Below are positions 1-63,778 of a stretch of 64,000 nt of DNA, in pieces. Origin of the DNA: Nitrospirota bacterium (GTDB taxonomy: Bacteria; Nitrospirota; Thermodesulfovibrionia; Thermodesulfovibrionales; Dissulfurispiraceae); NCBI GenBank assembly GCA_963790025.1, contig CAWBMP010000005.1, positions 320,001 through 384,000 of the forward strand, written 5' to 3'. A model generated the notes under the pieces. The model made no database searches. It saw only the letters and a list, made by a program, of their open reading frames with translations, and had not been told where the DNA came from. The position numbers and the translations under genes are program-made. Each line of letters opens with the position of its first letter. Position 1 is the first letter of the stretch.

Positions 1-2230
1 CCTGCATGCGTTTAAGATTATTGGATTTGCCACCTGTATTTTTATCATTGAAAGCATTCATTGCTACGACGTAGACACTGAAAGGCGCAAACCCCGCCAT
101 CGCAGACCCTAAAGAGACTTTGGCTTTTTGGGGGGTACTCATTTCTTCCCTGCTTTCTTCGAATGCGACCTCGCCGATTTCGTTTGTGCTCAGCTTTATG
201 CGGCGGCCGCCAAGTGATTTCAGCTTGCCGATCACATCAGAGTCGTAACAAACGGCAAAGAGTATACGCACATTTCTGGCCCTGACAGCCAGATGGGACA
301 ATACATCTATTGATGCAGGCGTTATAAGGGCGACAACTCCTTCGGGAATTTCCTCGTCGCCCCTCACATCGCCGGCAATGATGACGGTAGGGCGGCTAAA
401 ATTCTTGCCCTGGATGGATTTTAAATTAAGCACGGTTTCAATCACCCCTGTCGTCTCATGGCCGGGACTGATCACTTGCCAGTTTCCGAGGTCTGCGCTT
501 TTCCGCAAAACAGGATCAAGTTTGCGCAAAAGTGCCGAGAGGACAAACGCAGGTCTGCCGCGCACCACTGCTTCAGCAAAAAGCTTAATAGTCCATGGAG
601 CTGCATGAAAGGCATTGCCGAGGGCTTCGGCTTTGGGCTGAAGGAGTTGGTAATACCGGTCAATGAAATTGCCGATGCCCCTCTGAAGGCGGTCGACAAC
701 GGCTTTGGACTGAAGCGGCCACAGGGTGCCGGGACCGGGCATCTTGCCCAGGCGCTTAAAGTAAAGAAGACAGTTCTTAAACTCCTCGTCCGGATTTGAG
801 AGACACAGGTTTTCAAGAGACACTTTGGTCAATCCGACGAGTTCATCTACTGTCAGCTTCCGGTCCAGGTTTTTTTCGACAACGGCCCTGAATAGGTCTT
901 CAAGGGCCAGATCGAGAAAAAGGAGATCGCGCACAGAGCTTTGGTGCTCGCCGAGTCTGCCCGTCACCGCGTAGCGGGCCTCGGTGATCTTTTCGAGGAG
1001 TATGGGCACGTCCTCTCCGCGATCATCCCGATGCCTCCATATATAATCCATCAGGCTGTGCATTTCCGCATCAAACAGATACCGGGCATTATTAATGGAC
1101 GCTCCGAGATCGGTGCCGGAATGTACCTCCCTCAGTATTCCAAGGAAATGCTCGAAATCGTGAATGAGCGCATCTTTCAGGTGAGGAATGAACTCCGGGC
1201 TGGATATTATCGGGCGCTCATAAGTTTCCAGCCGTTTCCGCGGAACACCGCCTTCTTCGAGTCTCTTATAGAACAGATCAAGCTTCCCGTCACTTCTCAG
1301 GAATTCCAGGTAGGCCTCACATATGACGATATCGTCGGGCGTGGCGTTGTTATGGAGTTTCTGGTGCCATTCCTCCATAAAATGTCCCGCCATCTCTTTG
1401 ATGTGGTGGCGATGCATGATATTCAGTATCTCGTCGCGGACCCGCTGGGCGTCCTTCCCGGTGCCGAGCGTTGTCATCATCAGGCGGATGAACTCGCGCT
1501 CCCCCGGCTCAAGGATGTAGCGGCCCGCAAGCTTCAATGTAAGGCGGTCCATGGCATGGCCTAATTCGCGCGGTTTGGTATTATAGTTTCGCTGCCAGTC
1601 CAGTTGCCTGATATAAGAAAAGCGCAGCCAGACATAAAGAAGGGCAATGCCGTCGACGTCATTGCTTGCAATCCCGTCCAGCAGGTCGTAACAGAGATTT
1701 AACCTGTGCATCAATGTCCATGAATTGCGGCCAATTTCATTTTCGATTATTTTATCTGTAATGGCGGCAAGTTCGAGACTTTCTGAAAAAGCCTCCTGTC
1801 CGGAAGACGGAGCAACGGGTATGAAAAAGTTTTGTCCCTTATCTTTTATCCAGCGCCCTGTATCGCTTTGCTTTAGAACAAACCAGATACCCAGGGGCGC
1901 TTCGTCTTCGCTGGAATCAAGGAGCAGCAGGCTGGTACCATCGCTATAGGCGCTGTCGGCAAATGGCGTCTGGGCCGCTGTGTCCTGGAATACGGTTGTA
2001 CCGGGAGGCCGAAGAGAGGATTGCGGCAAAACCCATTCATGGCGCGACTTATATGCTGCTCCCCAATGCAGGATCAGGGGGCCCCGTATATCGGCAAGCA
2101 GTGCAATAATGTAATGCCTCTTGTCTTTGGTCACAACAACAGCCAGTTGCCCTTCATCAAGCCGGTACGGGCGTTCATAAACGATCTTTTCCTGATCTAC
2201 CGCTTTTTTAAGTTCTTCGATTAAAAGCAT
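1..2230 (-). CDS. alpha-glucan,water dikinase (GWD/R1/SEX1)-like protein, 3' end runs off the window
   Basis: Not in the ORF track because there is no stop inside the window. Hand translation from ATG 2230 is open to base 1 (MLLIEELKKAVDQEKI...). Contains CBM45-like LHWG..EW.LP...PGT..FVLK..W.K..G.NFFIP; MHRLNL; VWLRFSYIRQLDWQRNYNTKPREL; QRVRDEIL; FMEEWHQKLHNNATPDDIVICEA; VHSGTDL; LDPVLRKSADLGNWQVISP; GDEEIPEG; DVLSHLAVRARN (His codon 293-295, residue 646); and TGGKSNNL at the start of the nucleotide-binding domain. Confidence 0.92.
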   Translation of the reverse strand, partial: MLLIEELKKAVDQEKIVYERPYRLDEGQLAVVVTKDKRHYIIALLADIRGPLILHWGAAYKSRHEWVLPQSSLRPPGTTVFQDTAAQTPFADSAYSDGTSLLLLDSSEDEAPLGIWFVLKQSDTGRWIKDKGQNFFIPVAPSSGQEAFSESLELAAITDKIIENEIGRNSWTLMHRLNLCYDLLDGIASNDVDGIALLYVWLRFSYIRQLDWQRNYNTKPRELGHAMDRLTLKLAGRYILEPGEREFIRLMMTTLGTGKDAQRVRDEILNIMHRHHIKEMAGHFMEEWHQKLHNNATPDDIVICEAYLEFLRSDGKLDLFYKRLEEGGVPRKRLETYERPIISSPEFIPHLKDALIHDFEHFLGILREVHSGTDLGASINNARYLFDAEMHSLMDYIWRHRDDRGEDVPILLEKITEARYAVTGRLGEHQSSVRDLLFLDLALEDLFRAVVEKNLDRKLTVDELVGLTKVSLENLCLSNPDEEFKNCLLYFKRLGKMPGPGTLWPLQSKAVVDRLQRGIGNFIDRYYQLLQPKAEALGNAFHAAPWTIKLFAEAVVRGRPAFVLSALLRKLDPVLRKSADLGNWQVISPGHETTGVIETVLNLKSIQGKNFSRPTVIIAGDVRGDEEIPEGVVALITPASIDVLSHLAVRARNVRILFAVCYDSDVIGKLKSLGGRRIKLSTNEIGEVAFEESREEMSTPQKAKVSLGSAMAGFAPFSVYVVAMNAFNDKNTGGKSNNLKRMQ

Positions 2231-2234
2231 GTTC

Positions 2235-3743
2235 TCATGTAATGCCTTTCCTCTCGATCATCCGGAAATGATCAGCGAATATCTTGCGGAAATGAAAGCC
2301 GTATATCGAAAACGTTATGGCCAGAGGGAACAGTTTCGGATGCCTGAAAAGGGACCAGAAGAATAATCTCCAATAATAGAAACGCTCTTTCCCTATTATC
2401 CCGAGTATGAGCACAGACTTAAATCCTGCTTTAACATAGCTGTACCGCATATGGATTACATTTTTCTGGACCGGCCTGTACTCTCGCAGGAACAGTTTGA
2501 CCCGCTTATAGTAATTTTTTGGAGAATAGATTGTATCGATGATTTGTTTATAGCCTGTGATTAGTCCTTCGTAGTTCATCTTTGGAATGAAGTTCATTGA
2601 AAAGTCCGTATTGTCCCCCGACACAGCGTTCAACAACCTGTTTTCTCCGACCAACCGGTGATAGAGCTTTGTCCCACGCGGCGCATTCAGGAGTCCTACC
2701 ATTGCCGTCACAATCCCGCTCTCCTGGATGAACCCTATCATCTTCTCAAATATCGAGGCCGGGTCTTTATCAAAGCCGACGATGAACCCGGCCTGGACCT
2801 CAAGCCCGAAACTTTGTATCTTCCTGACACTCGCTATAAGGTCCCTGTTCCTATTCGGTATTTTTGTGCATTCAAGAAGGCTTTCCTCGTTGGGAGACTC
2901 GATGCCAACAAAAACAGTACTGAACTCGGCCCTCGCCATCATTTTCATGAGGTCCTCGTCGTCGGCCAGATTGATGGACGCTTCGGTCGAGAGCGTAAAA
3001 GGATGCCTCTTCAGGTCCATCCATTGGATAATCGACGGCAGTATCTCCTCTTTCAGTTTCTTCCTGTTCCCGATGAAGTTGTCGTCAACGAAGAATACCC
3101 CGCCCCTCCAGCCGAGAGAGTAAAGTTTCTCCAGTTCGCCGATTATCTGACCGTTGTTTTTTGTCCTGGGGACCCTGCCGTATAGTGAGGTTATATTGCA
3201 GAATTCGCAATCAAAGGGGCACCCCCTCGAATACTGGATATTCATGGAGGCGTAATCCTTCATGTTTATAAGCTCCCACAAGGGAATGGGCGTGGTCGTC
3301 ACATCGGCCCATTTATTCGATGTGTAGAGACTTTTGGGCCGTCCCTCTCTCAAATCGTTCAGGAACGGATGAAGCGTAATCTCCGCCTCGTTGAGCACAA
3401 GATGGTCTATGTCGGGAAACTCTTCGTGATCATTGGTAAAGAGCGGGCCTCCGGCAACCACTTTAACGCCTGCGGCCCTGCATCGTTTGATAACGGTTTT
3501 TGCCGATTCCTTCTGTATGGACATAGCGCTCAGAAAGACATAATCCGCCCACAGAAGATACTTGTCTTTCAGTTTCCGGACATTCATGTCCACGAGCTTT
3601 TTCTCCCATTCGCATGGAAGCATTGCTGCCACTGTCAGCAGCCCGAGTGGCGGATTGACGGCTTTCTTTGATATGAACTCGAGGGCATAGGAAAAACTCC
3701 AGAAGGTATCGGGATATTCCGGATATATAAGAAGGACTTTCAT
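2235..3743 (-). CDS. B12-binding radical SAM protein (DUF4070/HpnP-like family)
   Basis: N-terminal cobalamin-binding domain (PPLGLLTVAA), RGCPFDCEFC (CxxxCxxC), FFVDDNFIG. Start moved to ATG 3743 behind AAGGAG. Confidence 0.88.
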   Translation of the reverse strand: MKVLLIYPEYPDTFWSFSYALEFISKKAVNPPLGLLTVAAMLPCEWEKKLVDMNVRKLKDKYLLWADYVFLSAMSIQKESAKTVIKRCRAAGVKVVAGGPLFTNDHEEFPDIDHLVLNEAEITLHPFLNDLREGRPKSLYTSNKWADVTTTPIPLWELINMKDYASMNIQYSRGCPFDCEFCNITSLYGRVPRTKNNGQIIGELEKLYSLGWRGGVFFVDDNFIGNRKKLKEEILPSIIQWMDLKRHPFTLSTEASINLADDEDLMKMMARAEFSTVFVGIESPNEESLLECTKIPNRNRDLIASVRKIQSFGLEVQAGFIVGFDKDPASIFEKMIGFIQESGIVTAMVGLLNAPRGTKLYHRLVGENRLLNAVSGDNTDFSMNFIPKMNYEGLITGYKQIIDTIYSPKNYYKRVKLFLREYRPVQKNVIHMRYSYVKAGFKSVLILGIIGKERFYYWRLFFWSLFRHPKLFPLAITFSIYGFHFRKIFADHFRMIERKGIT

Positions 3744-3902
3744 TGAAAACTCCTTATGGATAAATGGACAGGTTAATACGCTCGATGGAATCGACTGAAG
3801 CGCCAACTATGACGATGAATACGGAACGTCTCACTAATGAGAATTATAACACAATTCTTCTACATTACTTGTCATTAATAGCTGAATCAAATGTTCGGGC
3901 CG

Positions 3903-5768
3903 TTAGTCCATAGATGGTTTTTGGGTTGCCGGAGGTATAAATACTCTTACTGTTGTACCCCTGCCTTCGGCCCCGGTAATCTCCACTGCCCCTCCCCAGG
4001 GATATACACGCTCTCGCATCCCTATTATGCCGAAGGATTGGGGCTTAGAAAGTTCCTCATCTGTTATGCCTTTGCCATTATCCATGACTTCCAGTATAAC
4101 CTGGTCATTGTCCCGTATTAGTCTTGCCGTTACCTTTGTGGCATTCGCATGCTTAAGGACGTTTGTCAGTCCTTCCTGAAAGATTCTGTAAAGTGCGGTA
4201 CTCCGTTCTTTGTCCAACTCGATATCCTCAGGCTCTGAGCAAAAAGTGCATTCTATCCCAATGCGTCTTTGAAATTCGTTCGCCTGCCATTCCAGTGCGG
4301 CAACAAGACCGAAATCATCCAATAACGAAGGTCTCAGCTCAGCGCAGATGCGCTTGACGGACAAGATTGCCTCATTTAGTGTATTCATCATTCCTTCGAC
4401 CTTGTCGAATACGGCCGTCTGGTCCCGGTAATTGCTTCGAAAACAACATAATTCCATCTTAATGGCCGTCAATATCTGGCCGAGTTCGTCATGAATCTCA
4501 CGCGCAATAGTTGTTCTTTCCTCTTCCCTGAAGGTAAGCAAATGAGCGGCAAGCTCACGAACTTGCTGATGCAATATTTTTAGCTCAGCTGTTTTTGCGA
4601 CTACGGTTTGTTCTATTTTGACATTTCTTCTAAAGACGCTTATCATCAGCATCGATACTGCACCTGTCAGCAGCAAACCGCTGATTAAAACCAGCACGTG
4701 GCCGTGCGTAGCCGCAACAGCGCCTGGATGAGTCACATATATTTTCCATGAGCGGCCGCCCACATCAATCATCTTTTCCGTTAGCGGCCTGTTTTGGGCC
4801 TTTTTTTCATGCGCTGTAAAGTCCATTGTTTCATCTGAATAGACGCCGAGCAGCCGTCCCGAACTGGATGCATCCATGTCTTTTATTCCTATTGACAGAC
4901 CTGCGCGCGTGAACCCTGACAATGCCCTTTCGACTATATCGCTTATCCTGAATACACCAAGAACAAAGCCGCGCAGTCCCGATGAATCAGGTACAACGCT
5001 TTCATCAAGAATTCCCGGGTTGTAAACAGGATAAAATAACAGAAAGCCGCATTGACTCGATCGTTCCTGGACCAGATTTATTCCTTCCGTGGCTGCTGAT
5101 CCTCCGATATTTATCGAGTGCCTGATCGCCTGTAATCTGGGAGCACTGGACGCCAGGTCTAAACCCAGAGCGGCTTCGTTGCCTTTATATGGTTCAAGAT
5201 AATAAACGGGTAAGTATTCTTTTCTCTTTCCTGCACGCACCATTTGCCCTTGTTCATTCAGTTCCTTTATCTCAAAGACGGGATAACCGTCTCTTTGTGC
5301 AGCCTGCTCGTATTTCTTCCTTTCGGAATAAGGAATTAACGGGACCCATTCCAACGCCTGTATGGCGGAGTTTCGAAGTAGTGTGTCCGCTATTTCATGA
5401 AATACATGCCTATCGACATCACGATTTGCGGCATAAAGACCGGCCAGGGCTTTCAGTGTTGTGACATTGGAATCAAATGCTTCTTCAAGCGCAAAAATTT
5501 GGTCTTCAGCAGCATCCTTCAGCTTTTGTTGCACCAATGCCAGTTCGGATATATATGTCTTATAGGTGCTGAAGACCGTTAAACCAACGGCCGCAATTAA
5601 AAATAACCCAAGGGAAAAAAGTTGTTTGCGTCGAAGTTTATATTTAGAGTCTGTAAACACTTGGACCTGCCCCCGAAAACTGTGCAGACCTTCACAACCA
5701 TAAGATTGCTTCGCAGTCGCCCCTCGCACAGATGGTACGCATGAAATAATTTCTCCGGTAATATACAC
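3903..5768 (-). CDS. CHASE-domain sensor histidine kinase (HisKA_3/NarX-type)
   Basis: TM-CHASE (IQALEW, YLEPYKGNEAALGLDL)-TM, then EERTTIAREIHDELGQ, QEGLTNVLKHA, DNGKG, GIIGMRER. Start uncertain; GTG 5660 is a plausible alternative. Confidence 0.88.
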   Translation of the reverse strand: MYITGEIISCVPSVRGATAKQSYGCEGLHSFRGQVQVFTDSKYKLRRKQLFSLGLFLIAAVGLTVFSTYKTYISELALVQQKLKDAAEDQIFALEEAFDSNVTTLKALAGLYAANRDVDRHVFHEIADTLLRNSAIQALEWVPLIPYSERKKYEQAAQRDGYPVFEIKELNEQGQMVRAGKRKEYLPVYYLEPYKGNEAALGLDLASSAPRLQAIRHSINIGGSAATEGINLVQERSSQCGFLLFYPVYNPGILDESVVPDSSGLRGFVLGVFRISDIVERALSGFTRAGLSIGIKDMDASSSGRLLGVYSDETMDFTAHEKKAQNRPLTEKMIDVGGRSWKIYVTHPGAVAATHGHVLVLISGLLLTGAVSMLMISVFRRNVKIEQTVVAKTAELKILHQQVRELAAHLLTFREEERTTIAREIHDELGQILTAIKMELCCFRSNYRDQTAVFDKVEGMMNTLNEAILSVKRICAELRPSLLDDFGLVAALEWQANEFQRRIGIECTFCSEPEDIELDKERSTALYRIFQEGLTNVLKHANATKVTARLIRDNDQVILEVMDNGKGITDEELSKPQSFGIIGMRERVYPWGGAVEITGAEGRGTTVRVFIPPATQKPSMD

Positions 5769-5781
5769 TATTTAGAATCTG

Positions 5782-5811
5782 TTTATAAACCGCCCGATTT
5801 TTTTTTGTCAA
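5782..5811 (-). promoter_or_regulatory. putative sigma70 hybrid promoter for the histidine kinase (-35 supplied by the IS end)
   Basis: Minus strand TTGACA (5811-5806), 18 nt, TATAAA (5787-5782). The -35 hexamer is the terminal 6 bp of the IS. Confidence 0.55.
5790..5805. repeat. IS target-site duplication, left copy (16 bp)
   Basis: CCGCCCGATTTTTTTT, identical to 7251-7266. Confidence 0.85.
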
Positions 5812-7250
5812 GCCAATTTAGAAATGTCCTATTTTTACCAAAATAGAAATGTCCGGTTTTTACGCTGCTGCTTTCCTCAACCTTTTCCTCAACTCTTGCC
5901 TTTTGAATATAAGGTCTTGTGATGTTCTCCAGAGATGATCTTTTGCCGGCACGCTATTTTGTGAATATCGTCTAATGGTGCTTTTCTCTTTATTCATCTT
6001 TTCCGGCCGGGCATCAATTTCTTTATACTTAATGCGCCTATCCTGGTACATTACTAACATCGTGCCGTCAATGCGTTCTTCGACTATTACTCTCGTCTTC
6101 TTTGGAAACGCCTCTTTAAGCTGATAGATTTTTTTATTGTGCCGTATAGTATTGTCATTTCCTACTGTATGCTCTGACCGTATACATAATATCCTGTTGA
6201 GGTTAAGTCCCTTTGGAATAGCCCTATGAATATCTTCCTTATGATGCGGATGAACCATAAATTTCTTATTAAAGTCAGCCCAATAATGTTCTTCCATGAA
6301 CATGTTTGCTTCTTCTATTGTGTTGGTTCCACGCAGTCGCAGTTCCTTTACCAGTCGGTCCTGTAACGTTTCATACAGCCTCTCCACGCGCCCTTTCGCC
6401 TGAGGAGAATAAGCATGAATGCGTTTTACTCCAAGTTCTGCCAATGCTCTGCCAAACTCGCTCAAGGGTTCAGTGCCGTTAATCTCGTCCTCTATGGAGG
6501 GCTCAGATGAAGATTTATAGGTCTTGTGCCTATCAAAATATACGCTCATAGGAATGCCATATTTCCTTATGTACCGCTTAAAACTGTCCATCGCAGGGAT
6601 TGTGCCCTCGTATTCATAAAACCTGCCATATACTCTGCCCGTTGCGTCATCTATATAGGCCATTAGAACACATTGTGGGCCTCTGTCTTCAAACCATTTG
6701 TGATGTGAGCCATCCATCTGCAACATTTCCCCACAATTCATTTTCCGTGGACGCCATTGTCTATGTATCTTTCTTTTTCGTCTTTTCTGCCATTCTCCTG
6801 CCTCGATAAGCCATAAGCGTAAGGTCTCATCACTTATCTTTATTTCGTCTATCTCAAAGAGCTTTTCTGCTGCCAGAGTAGGCCCAAATCCTTTATACCG
6901 CTCCTTATATAACTTGATAACCCTTTCTTTGAGCTTCCTTGGCCTTTGTCTGTTCGATTGTCTGCCGCGAGATCGGTGCCTTATTCCTGTATCCCCTTCC
7001 TCGGTTATACGTTTAACTATTCTCCTTATCTGTCTTTCACTCATTGAAATAATTTCGGCTGCCAGCCTCTGAGTTATCTCTCCTTCGATTACTTTGTGAA
7101 TTACATGCAATATCCTCAATTCCTTCTGCCGTACCATGATAATGTCCCCTTCTGCCATCCCGCCTCCCTCTCAAAAAGAGGCAGTATAGCATTACCTCAA
7201 TAGGACATTTCTAAATTGGTACTATAGGACATTATCATTTTGGCGCGACA
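5806..7250 (-). mobile_element. insertion sequence, IS1202-type (often annotated ISNCY), 1445 bp
   Basis: Imperfect terminal IRs starting TGT (TGTCAAGCCAATTTAGAAATGTCCTAT vs TGTCGCGCCAAAATGATAATGTCCTAT), each with two AATGTCC-core subrepeats; 16-bp flanking direct repeat; single DDE transposase. Confidence 0.88.
5860..7158 (-). CDS. DDE transposase (IS1202/ISNCY type)
   Basis: N-terminal HTH; integrase core EMLQMDGSHH, VYFDRH, PQAKGRVERLYETLQDRL; GGAGG RBS. Confidence 0.93.
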   Translation of the reverse strand: MAEGDIIMVRQKELRILHVIHKVIEGEITQRLAAEIISMSERQIRRIVKRITEEGDTGIRHRSRGRQSNRQRPRKLKERVIKLYKERYKGFGPTLAAEKLFEIDEIKISDETLRLWLIEAGEWQKRRKRKIHRQWRPRKMNCGEMLQMDGSHHKWFEDRGPQCVLMAYIDDATGRVYGRFYEYEGTIPAMDSFKRYIRKYGIPMSVYFDRHKTYKSSSEPSIEDEINGTEPLSEFGRALAELGVKRIHAYSPQAKGRVERLYETLQDRLVKELRLRGTNTIEEANMFMEEHYWADFNKKFMVHPHHKEDIHRAIPKGLNLNRILCIRSEHTVGNDNTIRHNKKIYQLKEAFPKKTRVIVEERIDGTMLVMYQDRRIKYKEIDARPEKMNKEKSTIRRYSQNSVPAKDHLWRTSQDLIFKRQELRKRLRKAAA

Positions 7251-7266
7251 CCGCCCGATTTTTTTT
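7251..7266. repeat. IS target-site duplication, right copy (16 bp)
   Basis: CCGCCCGATTTTTTTT, identical to 5790-5805, followed by host TGTCAAGCC. Confidence 0.85.
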
Positions 7267-7283
7267 TGTCAAGCCCGATTTTT

Positions 7284-7310
7284 TTGACACGTGACGAAAG
7301 TCCCTATAAT
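7284..7310 (+). promoter_or_regulatory. possible sigma70 promoter for the molybdoenzyme operon
   Basis: Perfect TTGACA (7284-7289) and TATAAT (7305-7310), but the spacer is only 15 nt. Confidence 0.35.
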
Positions 7311-7465
7311 GATTATTTATTACTGCGATACAAAATCCATATTAGACATAAGGACAGGTTTGTAATATGATGAGAGTGAGATCATGATTGACCGGCATTG
7401 CGGTATTTCTCCGGCTTGTGCCCGGCATTAGTAAAGCATAGATGAATTTTTCAGAAGGAGGCCAC

Positions 7466-10051
7466 ATGGACGACAATGGCACGTTATCCCGAAGAGACTT
7501 TCTGAAAGTTGCGGGCGCCACAGGGGTTGCGATTACGCTGACTGGTTTCCCGTTTCGCAATCTGAAGTCAGTAGCTGCATTCGAACGCCATCCCCAGGAA
7601 CAACCAGCGTTTCAAATCACCAAAAAAATTCCACAGGTATGCGCCCGCGCGTGCGAAGTGAATTGTGCTTTCTACGTCGCGGTCGGCACTGATCCCAAGA
7701 CCGGACTTGAAAGGGCCATGACAATTGAGGGTATGCCTCAGGACCCTATTGCGCAGGGCAAGTACTGCATTAAGGCCCTGGGCTATGTCGATTCTCTTTA
7801 CGACCCGGACAGGCTTATGGTCACCCTGAAAAGAACCAACCCGAAGAAAGGCACCGACCACGATCCTGGCTGGGTGACCGTACCTACAGACGATGCGGTG
7901 AAGGACATTATCGAAGTATTTAAAGCACATAAACGCGAAGAGATACTCATCGCTTCGCCCGGTGATCCTGCCACCAACAAACTGTGTCGTTCACTCGGTG
8001 TGACAAGGAGTGACCAGCGGACGGAGTGTTTCGGCACCCACTACTATATTAATTGCCTCACCCTGACGAATCCCCCGAACAAGTATTACTCGAGTACTTA
8101 TACCCCTAGCCATCACGTGCCCGGTTTCGACTATGATCTCGCAAAATACCAGATCTGGTTTGGCTTCGATTCCATCAGCAAATGCGGAAAGGCCGGTCTT
8201 ATTACCCATTGGGTGAAGTGCAGGAAAAACGGGGGGAAGGTTGTCATGTTCAATCCGGTAAGGACACCTATGGCTGATGATTTCGCTGCCGAATATCATC
8301 CGATCAAACCCGGCACCGACCTTGCGGTTGCTCTTGCGATAATAAATGTGATCCTTGCCGGCAAGAAGTATAATGCCGATTTCTTGAAGGATTATACCGA
8401 TGCTCCAGCGCTCGTCGATGAGAAAACAAAGACTGCCATAAAGTCCAAGGACGGGGGCTTTTATGCATGGTGTCAGAACCATAGGCGAGTGGAACCGCTG
8501 GATACCTGCGATGCGCCGTCTGTTGAGGGTGGAAGCTTTGCAGTGTCAATTGATGGCCGACCGGTCCAGGCCAAACCGGTATTCCAACTATTGATCGATG
8601 CCAATAAACAATATACTCCTGAATGGGCTGCACCTCTCAGCGAGGTGCCTGCAGATGTTATTCACAGGATAGCACTGGAACTTGCTGCAGCAGCACCCTA
8701 TGCTATGGTCCCAAGCAACAAGCGTGATGCTGCCGGTCCGAATTATGCGAACAGCTGGAGACTGCGTCACGCAATCAGCGTTATAAACACACTTATAGGT
8801 TCGATCGACCATGAGGGCGGGGTTCTGCTCCTGCATGGCGTAAAGATTCCCTGGTATGAAGATCTCGCCCAGCCTGTGGAACCGTATCCCCCGCTGCCTG
8901 TCATACAGGCAGATTTCAGGCAAGAGTTTCCTGTCACGAACAACATTTACAGGAATAAGGACTTTTCGGCGCCGGGCCATTACGGAATGCTCGGATTCGG
9001 CCTGTTGAATACTGACATAACCAAAGTGGTGTTCTTTCGGAACCCTCATAGGGGACTCTATGCGTTTGTTCAGCCCCAAATGGCTGAAAAGGGTCTCGAA
9101 AAGATGGACCTGGTGGTCGACTGGAACCTCTATCTGGATGATCTTGGCTACTGGTGTGATTATGTGCTTGCAGCTCCACATCAATATGAAGAATCCAAAT
9201 TGGACATACGGTCCTACTATCCGAAATACGCATGTCTTATTGGAGGCGCAGCTATCAGGGCTGAACTTCCCGGTGATCAGATAGGATGGGGCAGCCTTGC
9301 CAAGGCAATAGGTATGGCGCTCGCTCCCAAGTACTGGACGACGGACGGCAGCGGCGATCCGAAGAAAGCAGTTCCGACTAATATTACCGATGTCGCGGTC
9401 AAAGGTGTCGGGGCAGCCGAAAATACCAAAGAGTTTATGAAGAAAGGCGGCTTCTGGATCGACAAGTCACCCTATCAGAACTATAAACAGATAAGAGAAG
9501 TCGGATACGGTACGCAGAGCAATGGACGCGTAAGGATGTATATCGACGAGTTTGCCCGGGTCGGGCATGAGCCGCTGCCGAAATGGGCCCCACGCTGGAC
9601 CTCGCCTGAAGGTGAATTCAAATTTTCTAAGGTGGTTACAAGAGCTCCCTGGATCATGCATGCAGATCCGAACTTCGTCAACAATCCTATTTTAAAAATC
9701 ATGACAGCCAGGAATTACATGGACTGCGTCTGGCTCAACCCTGAAGCTGCAAGGCGGCTGGGGCTCAAGGAGGGTGATGAGGTCATGCTGGAAAATGACC
9801 CAAAATACATGAAGGTCCTCCCCCGTCCGATGAAGGCCAAGCTGCATCTTAGCAAGCGTATTGTAAGGGAAGATTGTGTTCTTATGTTCCACGGTATAGG
9901 ACACAGGGCCAGGAACCTGACCGTCGCAAGGGATTGGGGCTATCGTGATGGCGACCTCACTCCCCAGAAGGACCCCGCGATGAGCAAGAAGCATGATCCT
10001 ACAGGTATGGGCTGGGTCGAAGATGTCTATCTCAGCGTCAGGAAAGCGTAG
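7466..10051 (+). CDS. Tat-exported molybdopterin (bis-MGD) oxidoreductase catalytic subunit, Psr/Phs/Arr-like
   Basis: SRRDFLK twin-arginine signal; FeS motif CARACEVNC...YCIKA; IKPGTDLAVALA; C-terminal WLNPEAARRLGLKEGD dinucleotide-binding domain; AGGAGG before ATG 7466. Confidence 0.9.
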   Translation: MDDNGTLSRRDFLKVAGATGVAITLTGFPFRNLKSVAAFERHPQEQPAFQITKKIPQVCARACEVNCAFYVAVGTDPKTGLERAMTIEGMPQDPIAQGKYCIKALGYVDSLYDPDRLMVTLKRTNPKKGTDHDPGWVTVPTDDAVKDIIEVFKAHKREEILIASPGDPATNKLCRSLGVTRSDQRTECFGTHYYINCLTLTNPPNKYYSSTYTPSHHVPGFDYDLAKYQIWFGFDSISKCGKAGLITHWVKCRKNGGKVVMFNPVRTPMADDFAAEYHPIKPGTDLAVALAIINVILAGKKYNADFLKDYTDAPALVDEKTKTAIKSKDGGFYAWCQNHRRVEPLDTCDAPSVEGGSFAVSIDGRPVQAKPVFQLLIDANKQYTPEWAAPLSEVPADVIHRIALELAAAAPYAMVPSNKRDAAGPNYANSWRLRHAISVINTLIGSIDHEGGVLLLHGVKIPWYEDLAQPVEPYPPLPVIQADFRQEFPVTNNIYRNKDFSAPGHYGMLGFGLLNTDITKVVFFRNPHRGLYAFVQPQMAEKGLEKMDLVVDWNLYLDDLGYWCDYVLAAPHQYEESKLDIRSYYPKYACLIGGAAIRAELPGDQIGWGSLAKAIGMALAPKYWTTDGSGDPKKAVPTNITDVAVKGVGAAENTKEFMKKGGFWIDKSPYQNYKQIREVGYGTQSNGRVRMYIDEFARVGHEPLPKWAPRWTSPEGEFKFSKVVTRAPWIMHADPNFVNNPILKIMTARNYMDCVWLNPEAARRLGLKEGDEVMLENDPKYMKVLPRPMKAKLHLSKRIVREDCVLMFHGIGHRARNLTVARDWGYRDGDLTPQKDPAMSKKHDPTGMGWVEDVYLSVRKA

Positions 10052-10062
10052 GGGAGGGAAAA

Positions 10063-10650
10063 ATGAAAGAATATGCCATTCTGCTTGACACTACTTATTG
10101 CACAGGCTGCAATACATGCGCTTATAAATGCATACAGGAGTTCAGGGACCAGAACCAGGCCGCACGCGGCTTTTTCAGGGCCTTTGTTCAAATGAATGAT
10201 GATGGGATGTATCAGCAAAGGTGCATGCATTGCAAAGACCCTCAATGCGTTAAAGCCTGCTCCACAGGTGCTCTTTCAAAATCGCAGTATGGTCCTGTAT
10301 TGTTCGATGCCGGAAAATGTGCCGGAGACAAAAAATGCGTGGCCGCCTGCCCGTTTCAGGCCATTCAGTTTGATGCTTCTTCGGCAAAGATCGTCAAATG
10401 CAGCATGTGCGCCCATCGGATAAGCCAGGACAAGGAACCGGCGTGCGTAGAGGCATGTCCTTCCGGAGCTTTGCAATTCGGAGAATACAGCAAGCTTGCA
10501 GAAGTCGCAAAGACAACTGCCGCAAGGGACAACCTGAACATATACGGGCTGAAAGAAAACGGCGGTACGCATATGATAGTTCTTCTCAAGGGAAAACCCG
10601 AGGATGTCGGGTACCCGGCTGTAGCAGGGCTTGCCCGGCTCCTGGGCTGA
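10063..10650 (+). CDS. 4Fe-4S dicluster electron-transfer subunit (DmsB/FdnH/HybA-like)
   Basis: CTGCNTCAYKC, CMHCKDPQCVKAC, CAGDKKCVAACP, CSMC...PACVEACP. Confidence 0.92.
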   Translation: MKEYAILLDTTYCTGCNTCAYKCIQEFRDQNQAARGFFRAFVQMNDDGMYQQRCMHCKDPQCVKACSTGALSKSQYGPVLFDAGKCAGDKKCVAACPFQAIQFDASSAKIVKCSMCAHRISQDKEPACVEACPSGALQFGEYSKLAEVAKTTAARDNLNIYGLKENGGTHMIVLLKGKPEDVGYPAVAGLARLLG

Positions 10651-10656
10651 ATTTTA

Positions 10657-10678
10657 AGGGCGGCCTCTCGGCCGCCCT
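10657..10678 (+). terminator. GC-rich hairpin (possible attenuator or mRNA stabiliser)
   Basis: AGGGCGGCC-TCTC-GGCCGCCCT, 9-bp perfect stem with a weak T tail. Confidence 0.45.
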
Positions 10679-10698
10679 ATTCTTGAGGAGGAAAACTG

Positions 10699-11379
10699 AT
10701 GCCCGGATTGGACCAAAAACAGAACTTGGCACAGACAAGACTGACTCTCTATGGCCTGTTCGCCCAAGCTCTCAATTATCCTGACCATGAGCTTATTCAG
10801 CGGCTTTCGAGCGGCGAGTTTGTTGATAGCCTGTGCACTTCCCTGGACACCCTCGGACAGGCACTGCAGGAAAGGGACGTGACTCGACTGAAAAGTGCTT
10901 ACTCTGATAAGTCGCGGGAGGAAGGTGAGCTGCTTCTGGAACTTGAGAAAGAATACACGAGGATATTTTTTGCTTCGAGGCCTCGCCTGGCTTACCTGTT
11001 CGAGTCGGTGTATAACGAGGGCAAACTGTACCAGGATTCGACATTTGAGATCGCCAGGCTTTACCACGATGCGGGGTTGAAACTCGGCGATGATTTCAGG
11101 CTGCCCCCTGACCACATAGCAGTGGAATTTGAATTCCTCTCGTTCCTGTGCTACAAGGAGATGGAAGGGGCCTGCAGTGGCGATGAAGAGGCCCGCGAGT
11201 ATGCTAGAGAATTGCAGGATGAAGTCATTGGAAAGCATCTTGGGCCTTTTGCCATTAACGTGGCCGAAAGACTTGAAAAAAACGCTGGTACTCTTTTTTA
11301 CAGGAGTATAGCTTTCGCAATATTGCGACATTTCGGCGGCACGCAGGGCCCGGATATTAATAATACTTTGCATAGGTAA
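10699..11379 (+). CDS. TorD/DmsD family molybdoenzyme maturation chaperone
   Basis: EYTRIF, ESVY, PPDHIAVEFEFLSFL motifs; follows the Mo-enzyme genes. Confidence 0.9.
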   Translation: MPGLDQKQNLAQTRLTLYGLFAQALNYPDHELIQRLSSGEFVDSLCTSLDTLGQALQERDVTRLKSAYSDKSREEGELLLELEKEYTRIFFASRPRLAYLFESVYNEGKLYQDSTFEIARLYHDAGLKLGDDFRLPPDHIAVEFEFLSFLCYKEMEGACSGDEEAREYARELQDEVIGKHLGPFAINVAERLEKNAGTLFYRSIAFAILRHFGGTQGPDINNTLHR

Positions 11380-11469
11380 TCTGCTCCGTCAAAGGGTGGG
11401 GTTGAGAAGCCGCGTTAACGGCAGACTAGGTTTTAAACGACACAGGGTCCGATTTCGATGAGGTGGATT

Positions 11470-12957
11470 ATGGACAATGAAATGAGCCGCGGGGAGTCAC
11501 TCAAATGTTCGGCGGCGGCGGAGGAAAAACCGGAAAAGAAGCAGTACTGGAAATTCATTGTACCGTTGCTCATAGCGGCAGTCATATGCCTGGTCCCCGT
11601 CCCTCATGGACTGAAACCAAACGCCTGGCATTATTTTGCAGTGTTCTGCGCCGTCATCGGAGCACTGATTCTGGAACCTATCCCTGCAGCCGCAGCGGGA
11701 CTTGTCGGTGTAACCTTTGCCGGAACGTTGCTTATGGTTAATCCAAATCCGGCCGACTCCCTGAAATGGGCGCTTTCCGGTTTCATTAATAGCACGGTAT
11801 GGCTTATCTTTATAGCGTTTATGTTCGCCAAGGGATATGAAAAGACGGGATTGGGGCGCAGGCTTGCCCTTTTTCTTGTGAGATCACTGGGTAAAAAGAC
11901 GCTTGGCCTGGGTTATGCTATAGCGATAGCGGATCTGGTGCTTGCGCCTTTCACTCCGTCCAACACGGCCCGCAGCGGCGGAACGATTTTCCCGGTAATC
12001 AAGAACATCCCTCCACTCTATGATTCTCACCCAGGCGAGACAGCCGGCAGAATAGGCTCGTACCTGATGTGGACGGCGCTTGCCACTACCTGCATAACGA
12101 GTTCCATGTTTCTGACCGGCCTTGCACCAAACGTGCTCGCCATAGAGCTTGTCAAAAAAACGGTATCGGTGAGCATCTCATGGACAGACTGGGTCATAGG
12201 TTTCCTGCCGGTCGGCTTGTTTCTTTTTGCAGTGACCCCCTATCTGATCTATAAGATATACCCGCCGCAGTTGAAAGCCTGCGGCGATGTGTGCCTATGG
12301 GCGGACGAGGAATTATCAAAAATGGGCAGGATAACCCGAAAAGAAGTGATCATGGCCTTCCTTGCCATCGTTGCCCTTACGCTCTGGATTTTCGGCGGCA
12401 ACTGGTTCAAGCTCGATGCCACCATGACGGCACTCATTATTTTGTGCGCCATGATCCTGACGGGAATTATCACATGGGACGACGTCATCGGCAATAAGCA
12501 GGCCTGGAATGTGCTTGTCTGGTTTGCCACTCTCGTAGCTCTGGCCGATGGCCTCAAGCTGGTGAAATTTCTGGACTGGTTCGCTGTTCTCACTGCCGGG
12601 GCCATGAAGGGTATGCCCGTTTTAACGGTGATGCTCCTGTTCGTAGCAATCTTCTTTATTGCCCATTATATGTTTGCCAGCATAACGGCGCACACAGCGG
12701 CACTGCTGCCTGTATTTCTTTCGACGGCCGCGGCCATCCCGGGTATGCCGGTAAAATTACTCGCTTTAATGTTTTGCTTTACCCTCGGGATGATGGGCAT
12801 TATTACTCCATTTGCAACGGGACCGTCACCTATCTATTACGGAAGCGGATATGTGCCACGCAAGGACTTCTGGCGTCTGGGACTAATATTCGGGGCTATT
12901 TACCTTGTTGTCTTTCTTGTCATAGGATATCCTTATTTGGCGTGGATCACAGGCTGA
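11470..12957 (+). CDS. DASS family di/tricarboxylate antiporter (CitT/TtdT-like)
   Basis: GYEKTGLGRRLAL, APFTPSNTARSGG, HYMFASITAH, GPSPIYYGSGY; multi-pass membrane protein. Confidence 0.92.
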   Translation: MDNEMSRGESLKCSAAAEEKPEKKQYWKFIVPLLIAAVICLVPVPHGLKPNAWHYFAVFCAVIGALILEPIPAAAAGLVGVTFAGTLLMVNPNPADSLKWALSGFINSTVWLIFIAFMFAKGYEKTGLGRRLALFLVRSLGKKTLGLGYAIAIADLVLAPFTPSNTARSGGTIFPVIKNIPPLYDSHPGETAGRIGSYLMWTALATTCITSSMFLTGLAPNVLAIELVKKTVSVSISWTDWVIGFLPVGLFLFAVTPYLIYKIYPPQLKACGDVCLWADEELSKMGRITRKEVIMAFLAIVALTLWIFGGNWFKLDATMTALIILCAMILTGIITWDDVIGNKQAWNVLVWFATLVALADGLKLVKFLDWFAVLTAGAMKGMPVLTVMLLFVAIFFIAHYMFASITAHTAALLPVFLSTAAAIPGMPVKLLALMFCFTLGMMGIITPFATGPSPIYYGSGYVPRKDFWRLGLIFGAIYLVVFLVIGYPYLAWITG

Positions 12958-12981
12958 CAACTATGATCAGGAGATCTCATT

Positions 12982-14049
12982 ATGTATAAAATTGCGGTAA
13001 TACCGGGAGACGGCATCGGCAAGGAGGTGGTACCGCAGGGCATACGGGTCCTTGATGTCATTGGGAAACGCTTCGGAATCAGGTTCGAATGGGAGAGTTT
13101 TTCCTGGGGATGCGAATATTATGCGTCAACAGGCTTCATGATGCCAAAAGGAGGGCTCGAAGTTCTTAAAAAATATGATTCAATTTTTTTTGGGGCCGTT
13201 GGCTTTCCCGGCGTTCCGGACCATGTCTCTCTGTGGGGATTGCTTCTTCCTATAAGAAGAGCATTTCGTCAGTATGTAAACCTGCGGCCTGTCAAGCTCC
13301 TAAAGGGTGTAGTCAGTCCGCTGCGGGACGTGAATCCGGGCGATATCGACTTATATGTGGTAAGGGAAAACAATGAAGGGGAATACTCGAACGTTGGTGG
13401 CCGAGTATATGAAGGGACTGAGCAGGAAATGGTCATACAAGAATCTGTTTTCACCCGTAAGGGTGTAGAAAGAATCATTAAATATGCATTCGAGCTTGCA
13501 AAGAAGAGAGATAAGAAACATGTTACTTCAGCGACCAAATCGAATGCGCTCACTCATAGCATGACTTTCTGGGATGAGATATTCCGGAAGATTTCCTCTG
13601 AGTACACAGGAATAAGCGCGGATCAATATCATATTGACAATATTACTACTCTTTTTATACGGCGTCCTCAGATGTTCGATGTAGTTGTCGGCAGCAATCT
13701 GTTTGGCGATATCCTTTCTGATCTTGGGCCCGCTATTGCCGGCAGTCTTGGACTTGCGCCATCAGCCAACCTGAATCCGGAAAGGGAATTCCCCTCGATG
13801 TTTGAGCCGGTCCATGGTTCGGCGCCGGACATTGCCGGGAAAGGAATAGCTAACCCGGTTGCACAGATATGGTCAGGAGCTATGATGCTCGAACATTTAG
13901 GTTATCCGGAGGCAGCTAAAATTGTTGAGAATGCAATAGAAATAGTTATTGCTGAGAAGAAAATAAAAACTCGCGACATCGGAGGTACGGCTTCTACTGA
14001 AGAGATGGGCAAGGCCATTGCGGAAATGGCAGCTACTGCAGTTTCATAG
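12982..14049 (+). CDS. dmlA: tartrate dehydrogenase / D-malate dehydrogenase (decarboxylating)
   Basis: IPGDGIGKEV, VPDHVSLWGLL, RENNEGEYS, TSATKSN, NLFGDILSDL, FEPVHGSAPDIAG. Confidence 0.85.
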   Translation: MYKIAVIPGDGIGKEVVPQGIRVLDVIGKRFGIRFEWESFSWGCEYYASTGFMMPKGGLEVLKKYDSIFFGAVGFPGVPDHVSLWGLLLPIRRAFRQYVNLRPVKLLKGVVSPLRDVNPGDIDLYVVRENNEGEYSNVGGRVYEGTEQEMVIQESVFTRKGVERIIKYAFELAKKRDKKHVTSATKSNALTHSMTFWDEIFRKISSEYTGISADQYHIDNITTLFIRRPQMFDVVVGSNLFGDILSDLGPAIAGSLGLAPSANLNPEREFPSMFEPVHGSAPDIAGKGIANPVAQIWSGAMMLEHLGYPEAAKIVENAIEIVIAEKKIKTRDIGGTASTEEMGKAIAEMAATAVS

Positions 14050-14094
14050 TGGCTTTGCCGAACCGCAATATGCCTAAGTTTAAAGTATAATTTC

Positions 14095-14583
14095 ATGGGA
14101 TTGAATAGGCGCATAAGCAAAACCGGCAAATCGGGAGAGTCTTTTGAAATAGGGATCTGCGATGCCGATGATTTTTCCTCTCTTCGTGAGATGTACCGCA
14201 TTTTTTCACCCAGGCCCGCTTGTCAGGGTCTTCCCCCGGCAGATTTTGAGGTCTGTTGCAACTGGATAAAAAGGCTTTTATCAATAGGGATCAATTTCCT
14301 GGCCTGGAGGAACAACAGGGTGGTCGGCCATGCTGCGCTCGTTCCGGATCCCGACGGAAAATCGGGAGAGTTCGTAATCTTCGTTGACCGGGACTTTAGA
14401 AATATCGGCATCGGGTCCGAGTTGGCAAAACTGGCTATCGAAAAGGCCAGAGAATTGGCTTATCATTCAGTCTGGTTGACAGTCGAGAATTCTAATTTGA
14501 TTGCAATAAAACTTTATAGAAATTTCGGTTTTCAATTTTGCGATGAGGACATCTGTGAGAGGACGATGCTCCTGAAGCTATAA
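14095..14583 (+). CDS. GNAT family N-acetyltransferase
   Basis: FVDRDFRNIGIGSEL acetyl-CoA motif; N..AIKLYRNFGF. Confidence 0.85.
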   Translation: MGLNRRISKTGKSGESFEIGICDADDFSSLREMYRIFSPRPACQGLPPADFEVCCNWIKRLLSIGINFLAWRNNRVVGHAALVPDPDGKSGEFVIFVDRDFRNIGIGSELAKLAIEKARELAYHSVWLTVENSNLIAIKLYRNFGFQFCDEDICERTMLLKL

Positions 14584-14607
14584 AAATCATTTTTGAGCCC
14601 TTTAAAT

Positions 14608-14636
14608 TTGACATCTTCTACGGGATGGGATAATAT
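14608..14636 (+). promoter_or_regulatory. putative sigma70 promoter
   Basis: TTGACA-17 nt-TAATAT. Confidence 0.5.
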
Positions 14637-14770
14637 TTATCGAGATCGGAAAATTCTCAAATTTTGAGTATATGGCGGGGCTCCAGTTGCCCCAATAATG
14701 ACCCTCTGGGCGTGGGATTAGTCCACATATCACAGAATTCGAACTACATGAACGCATGAGGAGGCTTATT

Positions 14771-15058
14771 ATGAAAGAACATGAAGAAGTGGACCATCAG
14801 AAGCACCTGCCACGAGTCGGACAAACGGTAAAAAACAAGAAATACGGCACGTTATGGCGCATAATGGAGAAACGTGAGGTTTGGCAGAATGTTCCTGAAG
14901 ACGATCCGGAAACAGAGGAGCCCCGTACGCTTCCGGGTATTTACTTGTGTTTCTGGCGTGTTCAAGAGGGGACATTGCCGGGCGTCGGAAGACTTATGGG
15001 ATATGTCTACACTGCATACGACAATACATTCGAGGCAAACTGGGAGATTATACAATAG
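14771..15058 (+). CDS. hypothetical protein (95 aa, aromatic-rich)
   Basis: GGAGG RBS before ATG 14771; upstream promoter-like sequence; no recognised family. Confidence 0.7.
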   Translation: MKEHEEVDHQKHLPRVGQTVKNKKYGTLWRIMEKREVWQNVPEDDPETEEPRTLPGIYLCFWRVQEGTLPGVGRLMGYVYTAYDNTFEANWEIIQ

Positions 15059-15118
15059 GGAGGAAATCCCGAAGCGAGATAGCGTCAGCTACCCCTGCCG
15101 GGAATTTACGCATATTGG

Positions 15119-63355: not shown

Positions 63356-63778
63356 ATGTTAGACTTTCACGCAATGTGGTTTTGTGTCCTCCTTGTCAAT
63401 TTCCTTGTTCTTCTCTTTATCCTGAATAAACTCCTTTTTCAACCTCTTGCAAGCATTTTTAAGGAGCGGGAAAAAGCAACCATCGGCGCTCTCGATGAGG
63501 CCAAAACCATGACCGAAAAGAAAGATCAGGCCGTAGCAAAAATGAACGTCGAATTGCTCGCGGCGAGAAACGCGGCAAAAGCTGCGTATGATGCTTTGAA
63601 AGAGGAGGGGCAGGCTGCGCAGAAAGAGACATTGTCAAAGGCCGAAGCACAGGCCGTGGCATTGATTGAGCAGGCGAAGAAGGAATTGCAGGCTGAAGCT
63701 GAAAAGGCGAGGGCCGCCTTAAAAGCAGATATCGAAAAATTCTCCGAGGAAATTGTAACAAAACTGGTGAAAGCATGA
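63356..63778 (+). CDS. ATP synthase F0 subunit b'
   Basis: N-terminal TM (VNFLVLLFILNKLLFQP) plus Ala/Glu/Lys coiled coil; followed by a second b subunit. Confidence 0.88.
   Translation: MLDFHAMWFCVLLVNFLVLLFILNKLLFQPLASIFKEREKATIGALDEAKTMTEKKDQAVAKMNVELLAARNAAKAAYDALKEEGQAAQKETLSKAEAQAVALIEQAKKELQAEAEKARAALKADIEKFSEEIVTKLVKA

Follow-up and report, generated by a model that had tools for sequence, protein, structure and literature searches.

We analysed a 64,000-nucleotide stretch of a Nitrospirota genome (GenBank assembly GCA_963790025.1, contig CAWBMP010000005.1, positions 320,001 to 384,000 of the forward strand; hereafter the window), at the left edge of which lies a gene for a homolog of the plant alpha-glucan, water dikinase (GWD). 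The open reading frame (ORF) occupies the minus strand from an ATG at position 2230 (Met1, 2228-2230) down to base 2 and comprises 743 codons without a stop before the window edge; that it runs off this edge would explain its absence from the ORF track, as the default listing omits such ORFs. The first-pass annotation of this DNA had described an open minus-strand frame of at least 743 residues and a homolog of plant GWD1. We recovered the frame, its ATG start and all of the quoted motifs in the same order, and homology to GWD1 was borne out by GWD-specific Pfam models scoring above their cut-offs and by a match to the potato structure 9ha9 (E 5e-83).

The encoded protein consists of a CBM45 domain, a central helical domain, a phosphohistidine domain and a C-terminal ATP-grasp domain, in this order (Table 1). 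Residues 156-579 match two central-domain structures of potato GWD1 (9ha9_A, E 4.8e-83, chain residues 24-466; 9qvi_A, E 2.5e-82), and an acidic pair, Glu626/Glu627, lies upstream of the catalytic His646 (codon CAT). The window edge cuts the protein just after the GGKSNNL motif (residues 733-739) of the ATP-grasp domain. The remainder is present in P0002, a protein of 1065 residues from a public collection, encoded on a 639-kb contig and 100% identical to the window protein over all 743 residues. In P0002, the domain order is the same and the ATP domain is complete (PF01326, PPDK_N, C-terminal to the His domain, E 5.8e-27), so the concern that this domain might be missing beyond the window is dispelled. 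The placement of the His domain before the ATP domain, on which the first-pass annotation had relied, is seen in both the window ORF and P0002; as it also held, the order is opposite in PEP synthase and PPDK, and P0002 carries no PEP-utilizer domains. The single CBM45-like domain that it reported was likewise found once, both by Pfam and by a profile of the CBM45 region, neither of which revealed a second such stretch in the window protein; there is no room for one, because the stop codon of the upstream gene lies 4 bp before the ATG. Pfam gave no match to CBM20 in the window protein at E <= 1. Judging by eye from the translation, the N-terminus is hydrophilic with no obvious signal peptide, which, together with the requirement for ATP, indicates a cytoplasmic enzyme.

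Searched against NCBIfam, the 743-residue fragment gave no match, and P0002 matched only PEP synthase, rifamycin phosphotransferase and prodigiosin ligase models, through its ATP domain and at no more than 86 bits against cut-offs of 598-1700. Since NCBIfam holds no GWD model, this outcome is not evidence against GWD, and the best profile matches of the protein are GWD-specific. Identity as a PEP synthase or PPDK was rejected (best NCBIfam PEP synthase score of 86 bits, cut-offs of 598-1063), as was identity as a rifamycin phosphotransferase (NF041857, 68 bits against 999, confined to the ATP-grasp part, with no rifamycin-binding domain).

Table 1 Coordinates of the dikinase gene, its domains and other features in the window, and of partner genes at loci of relatives (prefix L)
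Feature	Position	Strand	Basis or remark
GWD-family dikinase gene, 5' 70%	2..2230	-	ORF and translation; remaining 322 codons beyond base 1
Single CBM45-like Ig domain, residues 25-139	1814..2158	-	PF23166, E 1.8e-26, 93 bits, cut-off 27
GWD central helical domain, residues 156-579	494..1765	-	phmmer against PDB; WLRF..RQLDWQRNYNTKPRE and EEWHQKLHNN blocks
Ala554 codon GCA, StGWD1 Glu901 position	569..571	-	one base from GAA
Phosphohistidine domain, residues 583-696	143..484	-	PF22973, E 1.4e-34, 118 bits, cut-off 27; His646 codon at 293-295
Start of C-terminal ATP-grasp nucleotide-binding domain, cut by window edge	2..73	-	GGKSNNL at 14-34
B12-binding radical SAM/DUF4070 gene	2235..3806	-	Pfam; directly upstream of the dikinase
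Alpha-glucan family phosphorylase, 568 aa	27720..29426	-	TIGR02094, 568.6 bits, cut-off 191.7; Pfam Phosphorylase
Second dikinase (example)	L003:13065-16385		directly downstream of the GWD-type gene
Second dikinase (example)	L016:13089-16568		directly downstream of the GWD-type gene
Standalone TIM barrel (example)	L011:4647-5447		immediately after the GWD-type gene
Standalone TIM barrel (example)	L034:12055-12954		immediately after the GWD-type gene
Standalone TIM barrel (example)	L001:12960-13928		immediately after the GWD-type gene
c1a	L016:16516-17613		followed by c1b
c1b	L016:17559-18914		follows c1a

Residue conservation was followed in profile alignments of 118 bacterial-type proteins (at least 900 residues, drawn from the best 120 of 1315 matches in the protein collection) and 120 eukaryotic proteins. 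The position of the catalytic His646, which corresponds to His992 of potato GWD1 (StGWD1), is occupied by His in all 118 and all 120 sequences, respectively. Glu626 is invariant in the bacterial-type set, whereas position 627 is Glu in 108 of these proteins and in 119 of the eukaryotic ones; the StGWD1 residue names follow the available part of PMC13553574, which gives E971 as the acidic residue about 20 positions before the histidine. Arg650, Arg652 and Lys735 are also invariant among the 118, and in the ATP domain Arg974, Asp976 and Glu980 are kept in 116 (the other two being gapped), and Asp1041 and Glu1043 in 115 (three gapped). The CBM45 residues Trp56, Trp66 and Trp127, which we take to be starch-binding, are kept in 117-118 of the bacterial-type and 115-120 of the eukaryotic proteins. 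Three conserved charged residues where the central and His domains meet, E900, E901 and R904 of StGWD1, are proposed in the accessible portion of PMC13553574 to be possibly involved in phosphate transfer. At the first of these positions, the bacterial-type proteins have Glu (115) or Asp (3; Glu553 in the window protein), and at the last an invariant Arg (Arg557). At the E901 position, Glu is found in 115 of the 118 bacterial-type and in all 120 eukaryotic proteins; the window protein is the only one with Ala (Ala554), and two other bacterial-type proteins have Gly and Asp, respectively. Finally, the first Cys of CFATC, the disulfide/redox motif next to the catalytic histidine of land-plant GWD1 (PMC6805951), is Leu657 in the window protein and is present in none of the 118 bacterial-type and 58 of the 120 eukaryotic proteins. 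The lack of this Cys from the bacterial-type proteins implies that the plant-style redox switch is absent from them.

Comparison with known systems places the window protein among the GWDs. Plant and green-algal GWD1 (potato R1/StGWD1, Arabidopsis SEX1; EC 2.7.9.4) has the same domain order and shares with it the histidine motif D-V/I-L-S-H-x-x-V-R-A-R-N with the preceding acidic pair, the nucleotide-binding motifs and two further blocks, EEWHQKLHNN and NYN-x-K/Q-PRE. Named GWDs of plants and algae are 33-40% identical to the window protein over 85-100% of its 743 residues. Compared with GWD1, the window protein is about 330-400 residues shorter, has one CBM45 rather than two, lacks a transit peptide region and the DUF7067 (PF23229) segment of the green-lineage proteins, differs at Leu657 and at the E901 position, and is encoded in an operon-like bacterial context. 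A short eukaryotic lineage (about 1030-1340 residues; P0388, P0394, P0399, P0409, P0419, P0437, P0307 and P0346), which is also uncharacterised, resembles the window protein in that most members have a single CBM45; forms of about 1030-1120 residues are also like it in length. It includes sequences from Chlorella, Coccomyxa, Chara and Klebsormidium, Selaginella 'alpha-glucan water dikinase 2', cryptophyte transcripts and MMETSP transcripts labelled Porphyri... and Rhod... (red-algal); in the trees described below it makes up a separate clade (SH-aLRT 100), which does not come out as the sister group of the bacterial proteins, and its central domain has a GHRPGI-type insertion not found in bacteria or GWD1. 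PWD/GWD3 (EC 2.7.9.5), compared here by description rather than by sequence, has the same His and ATP module and dikinase chemistry (according to the available text of PMC13666283), but carries an N-terminal CBM20, whereas the window protein is of the CBM45 type. PEP synthase, PPDK and rifamycin phosphotransferase are related to it through their ATP-grasp domain and likewise work by a swivelling phosphohistidine (PMC13553574, accessible part); the C-terminal PEP-utilizer TIM barrel, which accompanies the opposite domain order of PEP synthase and PPDK, is lacking in the window protein.

The family to which the window protein belongs consists of GWD-type proteins encoded by metagenome-assembled genomes (MAGs) of Nitrospirota, Thermodesulfobacteriota, anammox Planctomycetota, Acidobacteriota and Verrucomicrobiota, with identities of 48-76%; Ala554 is peculiar to the window protein, and slightly over half of the members have two CBM45 domains. 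The rarity of a bacterial GWD that the first-pass annotation implied was not sustained. A word-indexed search of the protein collection yielded 1315 proteins at E <= 1e-3 among 8000 scored candidates, the best 120 of which are 52-100% identical over 90-100% of the query, and 230 of the 262 pattern-matched stretches from species-representative genomes encode a relative. Moreover, the JGI name 'alpha-glucan, water dikinase' already stands on 37 of the best 120 matches (our count). Fifteen of these 120 bear an NCBI name. Fourteen of the names are MAG labels (Nitrospirae/Nitrospirota, Dissulfurispiraceae, Desulfobacterales, Deltaproteobacteria), for which the product reads, for instance, 'hypothetical protein' or 'PEP/pyruvate-binding domain-containing protein', and the fifteenth, from a 'hydrothermal vent metagenome', is called phosphoenolpyruvate synthase. 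An exhaustive search of 50%-identity representatives returned 6042 clusters at E <= 1e-3, 1596 at E <= 1e-10 and 535 at E <= 1e-30, counts that take in eukaryotes and, at the weaker thresholds, other dikinases. The window gene is unexceptional within a large bacterial family, one already annotated automatically and mentioned in print: the legend to Fig. 9 of PMC6260743 (2018), the part of that paper available to us, has bacteria in a GWD tree and reads this as possible lateral gene transfer.

For the analysis of gene neighbourhoods, 80 of the 230 stretches were kept, all of them MAG contigs (L001-L080). By NCBI label, these represent Nitrospirota (36), Thermodesulfobacteriota (20), 'Deltaproteobacteria' (8, mapped to Myxococcota), Planctomycetota (3, from Scalindua and Anammoxibacter), Acidobacteriota (2), Verrucomicrobiota, Deferribacterota and Pseudomonadota (1 each), and 8 have no phylum label. 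One of these eight, L070, is a contig of only 4.4 kb binned as 'archaeon', with a very low coverage (0.70 in its title), and its bin assignment is doubtful. The number of CBM45 domains varies within the family: among 117 bacterial-type homologs of at least 950 residues, 64 have two copies (median length 1162 residues) and 53 have one (median 1043), and the full-length dikinases of the loci divide into 30 with two and 37 with one, with no correlation between CBM45 number and the type of downstream gene. The first-pass annotation had regarded the single CBM45 as informative on the origin of GWD, a view that these counts do not favour. On the sequences compared, a single copy is not a primitive bacterial peculiarity, since many bacteria have two and eukaryotes, including algae and Selaginella, also have a short single-CBM45 lineage.

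To compare neighbourhoods, 956 non-overlapping ORFs from the 80 loci and the window were clustered and the representatives named by Pfam and NCBIfam. A recurrent same-strand array follows the dikinase gene on its 3' side. It consists of a TIM barrel or TIM-barrel dikinase, a gene of about 360 codons with no Pfam or NCBIfam match (c1a) and a GH13-like gene of about 440 codons (c1b; hDGE_amylase/alpha-amylase), to which DUF4912, a GH57 branching enzyme (GH57 and BE_C; 345 bits to NF041133, below its cut-off of 1000) and GlgA (881 bits to NF001905) are often added. A DUF3417-type alpha-glucan phosphorylase, GlgB, MalQ and more GH57 proteins are also found near the dikinase in relatives. Among the 48 loci with at least 5 kb downstream, the next gene on the same strand encodes a standalone TIM barrel in 15, a TIM-barrel dikinase in 21 and a dikinase fragment in 2, and c1a or the GH13-like gene occurs within 9 kb in 39. 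At least one alpha-glucan gene (GH57 branching enzyme, GlgA, alpha-glucan phosphorylase, GlgB or MalQ) is present in 49 of 78 loci, L004 and L008 having been left out of this count because their merged ORFs were not classifiable. The closest relatives with the same upstream genes as the window dikinase (L003, L009 and L001) carry downstream array partners. The proposal of the first-pass annotation that the bacterium may phosphorylate its storage glucan gains support from these neighbourhoods. At L051 (Candidatus Anammoxibacter), two ORFs of the dikinase cluster (2569-6120 and 9878-13357) are separated by about 4 kb, and a c1-type gene comes after each; one of the two entered the tree set as GWD-type.

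The TIM barrel of the array is of the xylose-isomerase-like/AP-endonuclease-2 type and occurs either as a standalone protein of 267-310 residues or as an N-terminal fusion to a second dikinase, each at 24 loci. In the second dikinase, of about 1100-1220 residues, the TIM barrel replaces the CBM and is followed by GWD-type His and ATP domains. With 27% identity to residues 263-919 of P0002 (E 6e-49), it is, at the level of sequence, a divergent paralog of the module formed by the central, His and ATP domains, and literature searches found no description of this architecture. At L001, an IS200-like transposase ORF and an opposite-strand RHS-repeat ORF lie between the TIM-barrel ORF and the dikinase ORF (13911-16049), and the fused gene appears split. 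The model of the standalone TIM barrel (pLDDT 89) has as Foldseek neighbours the African swine fever virus AP endonuclease, the uncharacterised MJ1311, the L-xylulose-5-P 3-epimerase UlaE and Endo IV (TM about 0.65-0.75), and a profile search of PDB sequences gave MJ1311 (8e-14) and Endo IV (3e-4), with alignments running through the HAP, xH, ENT and D-x-x-H blocks. Below threshold, NCBIfam gave nfo and the cobamide-remodelling phosphodiesterase CbiR (37-42 bits, cut-off 105). The invariant His, Asp and Glu residues are spaced like what we take to be the nine metal ligands of E. coli Endo IV, a pattern that would fit a multi-metal site. The c1a protein is also modelled as a TIM barrel (pLDDT 88.7), with weak matches to Endo IV and xylose isomerase (TM 0.43-0.55), and it carries many invariant His, Asp and Glu residues; ORFs of 780-852 codons in the same cluster at L050, L055, L068 and L080 suggest a c1a-c1b fusion. 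For both the TIM barrel and c1a, Foldseek and profile searches do not separate phosphoesterase from sugar epimerase; the standalone TIM barrel might be a phosphoglucan phosphoesterase.

Two trees were built from hand-chosen sequences: one with FastTree (86 rows, 1024 columns: P0002, 32 locus dikinases, 10 TIM-barrel dikinases as outgroup, 22 named eukaryotes and 21 unlabelled representatives) and one with IQ-TREE in quick mode under LG+G4 (47 rows, 1005 columns: P0002, 14 locus dikinases, 6 outgroup sequences, 20 named eukaryotes and 6 unlabelled sequences). The outgroup paralog sits on a long branch, and PWD was not included. Both trees unite the bacterial GWD-type proteins in a single clan (support 99), the members of which are 45-75% identical to one another and 33-40% identical to eukaryotes; the window protein groups with those of the Nitrospirota loci L001, L003, L005 (a MAG labelled Dissulfurispiraceae) and L006. 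Phyla are intermixed within this clan, Scalindua grouping with a Nitrospiraceae MAG and a Deferribacteres MAG (SH-aLRT 99), which suggests transfer of the gene among bacteria. The eukaryotic sequences fall into three lineages, namely green GWD1/2 with cryptophytes, a red alga with P0122, and the short-form clade. Rooting with the TIM-barrel dikinases gave no resolved backbone between these and the bacterial clan, and an approximately unbiased (AU) test did not reject monophyly of the 20 named eukaryotes against bacteria plus outgroup (delta lnL 7.6, p 0.368). For these two reasons, we make no claim as to the donor; by these alignments, both lateral transfer from a eukaryote to a bacterium and a bacterial origin would be compatible with the trees. 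Of the tree comparison that the first-pass annotation had recommended, a bacterial GWD-type clan is the part that emerged with support, whereas the direction of transfer is not given.

Upstream of the dikinase, on the same strand, lies the radical-SAM gene (Table 1), whose TGA stop precedes the ATG by 4 bp; a purine-rich stretch is found 13-24 nt upstream of the ATG, and the two genes are probably co-transcribed. This neighbour is kept at L001, L004, L007 and L009, an association specific to the lineage rather than family-wide. The order PBP1A-radical SAM-dikinase recurs in independently assembled Nitrospirota MAG loci (L001, L003, L004, L007 and L009), where the PBP1A and radical-SAM proteins beside the dikinase share 83-87% identity with those of the window, and the dikinase itself 72-73%. 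The rest of the window contains housekeeping genes, encoding ribosomal protein S2, EF-Ts, UMP kinase, RRF, PBP1A, a FabF-like synthase, a sigma-54 activator, RpoN, LptA/C, MlaDEF, Def/Fmt and MqnA, and the GC content around the dikinase is unremarkable. The window dikinase is a bacterial, chromosomally encoded gene, and its host is a relative of these Nitrospirota, near the Dissulfurispiraceae MAG of L005. A phosphorylase of 567 residues, similar to that of the window, is encoded about 6 kb upstream of the dikinase at L001.

Collectively, these results make it likely that the window gene encodes a bacterial member of the alpha-glucan, water dikinase family that phosphorylates the cell's own storage alpha-glucan; its dikinase activity, glucan acceptor and physiological role are inferred from homology and gene context. 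As its homology with GWD1 of potato and Arabidopsis suggests, ATP would bind to the C-terminal ATP-grasp domain; the gamma-phosphate would be transferred to water and the beta-phosphate to His646 of the phosphohistidine domain, which swivels. This domain would then move to the central helical domain, where an alpha-1,4-glucan, bound by that domain and by the CBM45, would receive the phosphate on one of its glucosyl hydroxyls. The most likely substrate would be the cytoplasmic storage glucan of the bacterium itself, which phosphorylation may loosen or solubilise for mobilisation, and the dikinase would cooperate with the enzymes of glucan synthesis and breakdown that are encoded beside it in relatives. 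As for the position phosphorylated, C6 would be our guess, because the protein is closer in likeness to GWD1 than to the CBM20-type PWD.

A foreign origin of the sequence, that is, an algal or plant gene brought in by contamination or by a chimeric assembly, would accord with the description of GWD as a eukaryotic starch enzyme in the accessible portions of PMC6260743 and of a 2026 preprint (10.64898/2026.09.25.754361). It is effectively refuted by the uninterrupted frame set 4 bp from a co-directional bacterial radical-SAM gene, the dense bacterial housekeeping DNA over the 64-kb window with no aberrant GC near the gene, the synteny at five further loci and the far higher identities within the bacterial clan than to eukaryotes; the chimeric assembly that the first-pass annotation had asked to be checked is in practice excluded. 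It is unlikely, to a lesser degree, that a dikinase of GWD fold acts here on another acceptor, be it a small molecule (the case of rifamycin phosphotransferase), a different polysaccharide or maltodextrin taken up by the cell. Enzymes of the superfamily catalyse varied reactions, the NCBIfam matches are all to enzymes of other function, GWD glucan binding is still not understood even for the potato enzyme (PMC13553574, available part), and the TIM barrel that takes the place of the CBM in the tandem paralog suggests diversity of acceptors within the gene cluster. Against this, those NCBIfam matches are far below cut-off and restricted to the nucleotide-binding domain, conservation with plant GWD takes in the CBM45 tryptophans and the central domain in its entirety, and the family is embedded in clusters of glycogen synthase, branching enzyme and phosphorylase genes. 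We regard as rather improbable, too, that the window copy is impaired or decaying through the Glu-to-Ala replacement at E901, the tandem paralog or another copy doing the work. No other protein in the bacterial-type set of 118 or the eukaryotic set of 120 has Ala at the position of Ala554, and its codon is one base from GAA; yet the frame is intact (743 codons in the window, 1065 residues in P0002), the other catalytic and nucleotide-binding residues checked are conserved, a role of E901 is only suggested in the part of PMC13553574 at hand, and Gly and Asp also occur at this position in bacterial-type proteins.

Several observations nevertheless weigh against the assignment of the window gene to phosphorylation of a storage glucan. 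Because of Ala554, this copy could be impaired, unless the base is an assembly error. The downstream partners of the window gene lie beyond base 1, the array being seen only in relatives at no more than 73% identity, and 10 of the 48 loci have no TIM barrel or dikinase gene downstream. Within the window, the only other alpha-glucan enzyme seen is the phosphorylase, 25 kb from the dikinase. A search for glucan phosphatases of the laforin/SEX4 type, which the first-pass annotation had called for and which would complete a cycle of phosphorylation and dephosphorylation, gave no canonical match to the DSP/PTP CX5R signature in the 956 ORFs of the relatives' loci and the window, although with a crude regular expression that would miss other phosphatases. 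Literature searches, within the library at hand, found no paper describing or assaying a bacterial GWD.

A broader scenario, which we consider doubtful, is that these anaerobes (Nitrospirota, Desulfobacterota, anammox Planctomycetota and others) run a complete starch-like cycle of reversible phosphorylation on a semi-crystalline storage glucan, with a GWD-type dikinase, a TIM-barrel dikinase in the role of PWD and Endo IV-like, metal-dependent TIM-barrel phosphoesterases; that the TIM barrels replace laforin/SEX4 phosphatases is a hypothesis only. In its boldest version, to which the same doubt applies, such bacteria would be the source of eukaryotic GWD, having donated it to the ancestor of the starch-storing eukaryotes. 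The literature regards starch phosphorylation by GWD as a defining trait of these eukaryotes. In the accessible part of the 2026 preprint, dikinases are said never to have been seen in glycogen accumulators, and a review of September 2026 states, in the portion available, that whether prokaryotic glycogen is phosphorylated, and by what, is not known. A widespread and intact bacterial GWD family in glycogen clusters provides a candidate enzyme for glycogen phosphorylation, and one that, as a soluble protein encoded without introns, makes the question directly testable. Such an enzyme would bear on the long-lived carbon reserves of slow-growing anaerobes, on the origin of GWD and on the use of shorter, simpler dikinases for enzymatic phosphorylation of starch. 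The family, especially with its conserved TIM-barrel and second-dikinase partners, is of greater interest than the window gene itself.

Other features of the window are minor. A promoter and terminator scan of positions 1-7500 remained at background (8 promoter-like sites against 10.9 expected, 10 terminator-like sites against 7.3), and neither RNA families (Rfam) nor tRNAs were found in the window. Three minus-strand ORFs, at 5860-7158, 10654-11373 and 63526-63999 (432, 239 and at least 157 codons), have no Pfam match at E <= 1e-5. Two genes of the FGE-sulfatase family, encoding formylglycine-generating-enzyme-like proteins, lie on the plus strand at 30374-31285 and 54344-55570, with no sulfatase gene noticed nearby. 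For an ORF of 869 codons at 7442-10051, the sole match is to a molybdopterin dinucleotide-binding domain; a gene for a 4Fe-4S dicluster protein follows it.

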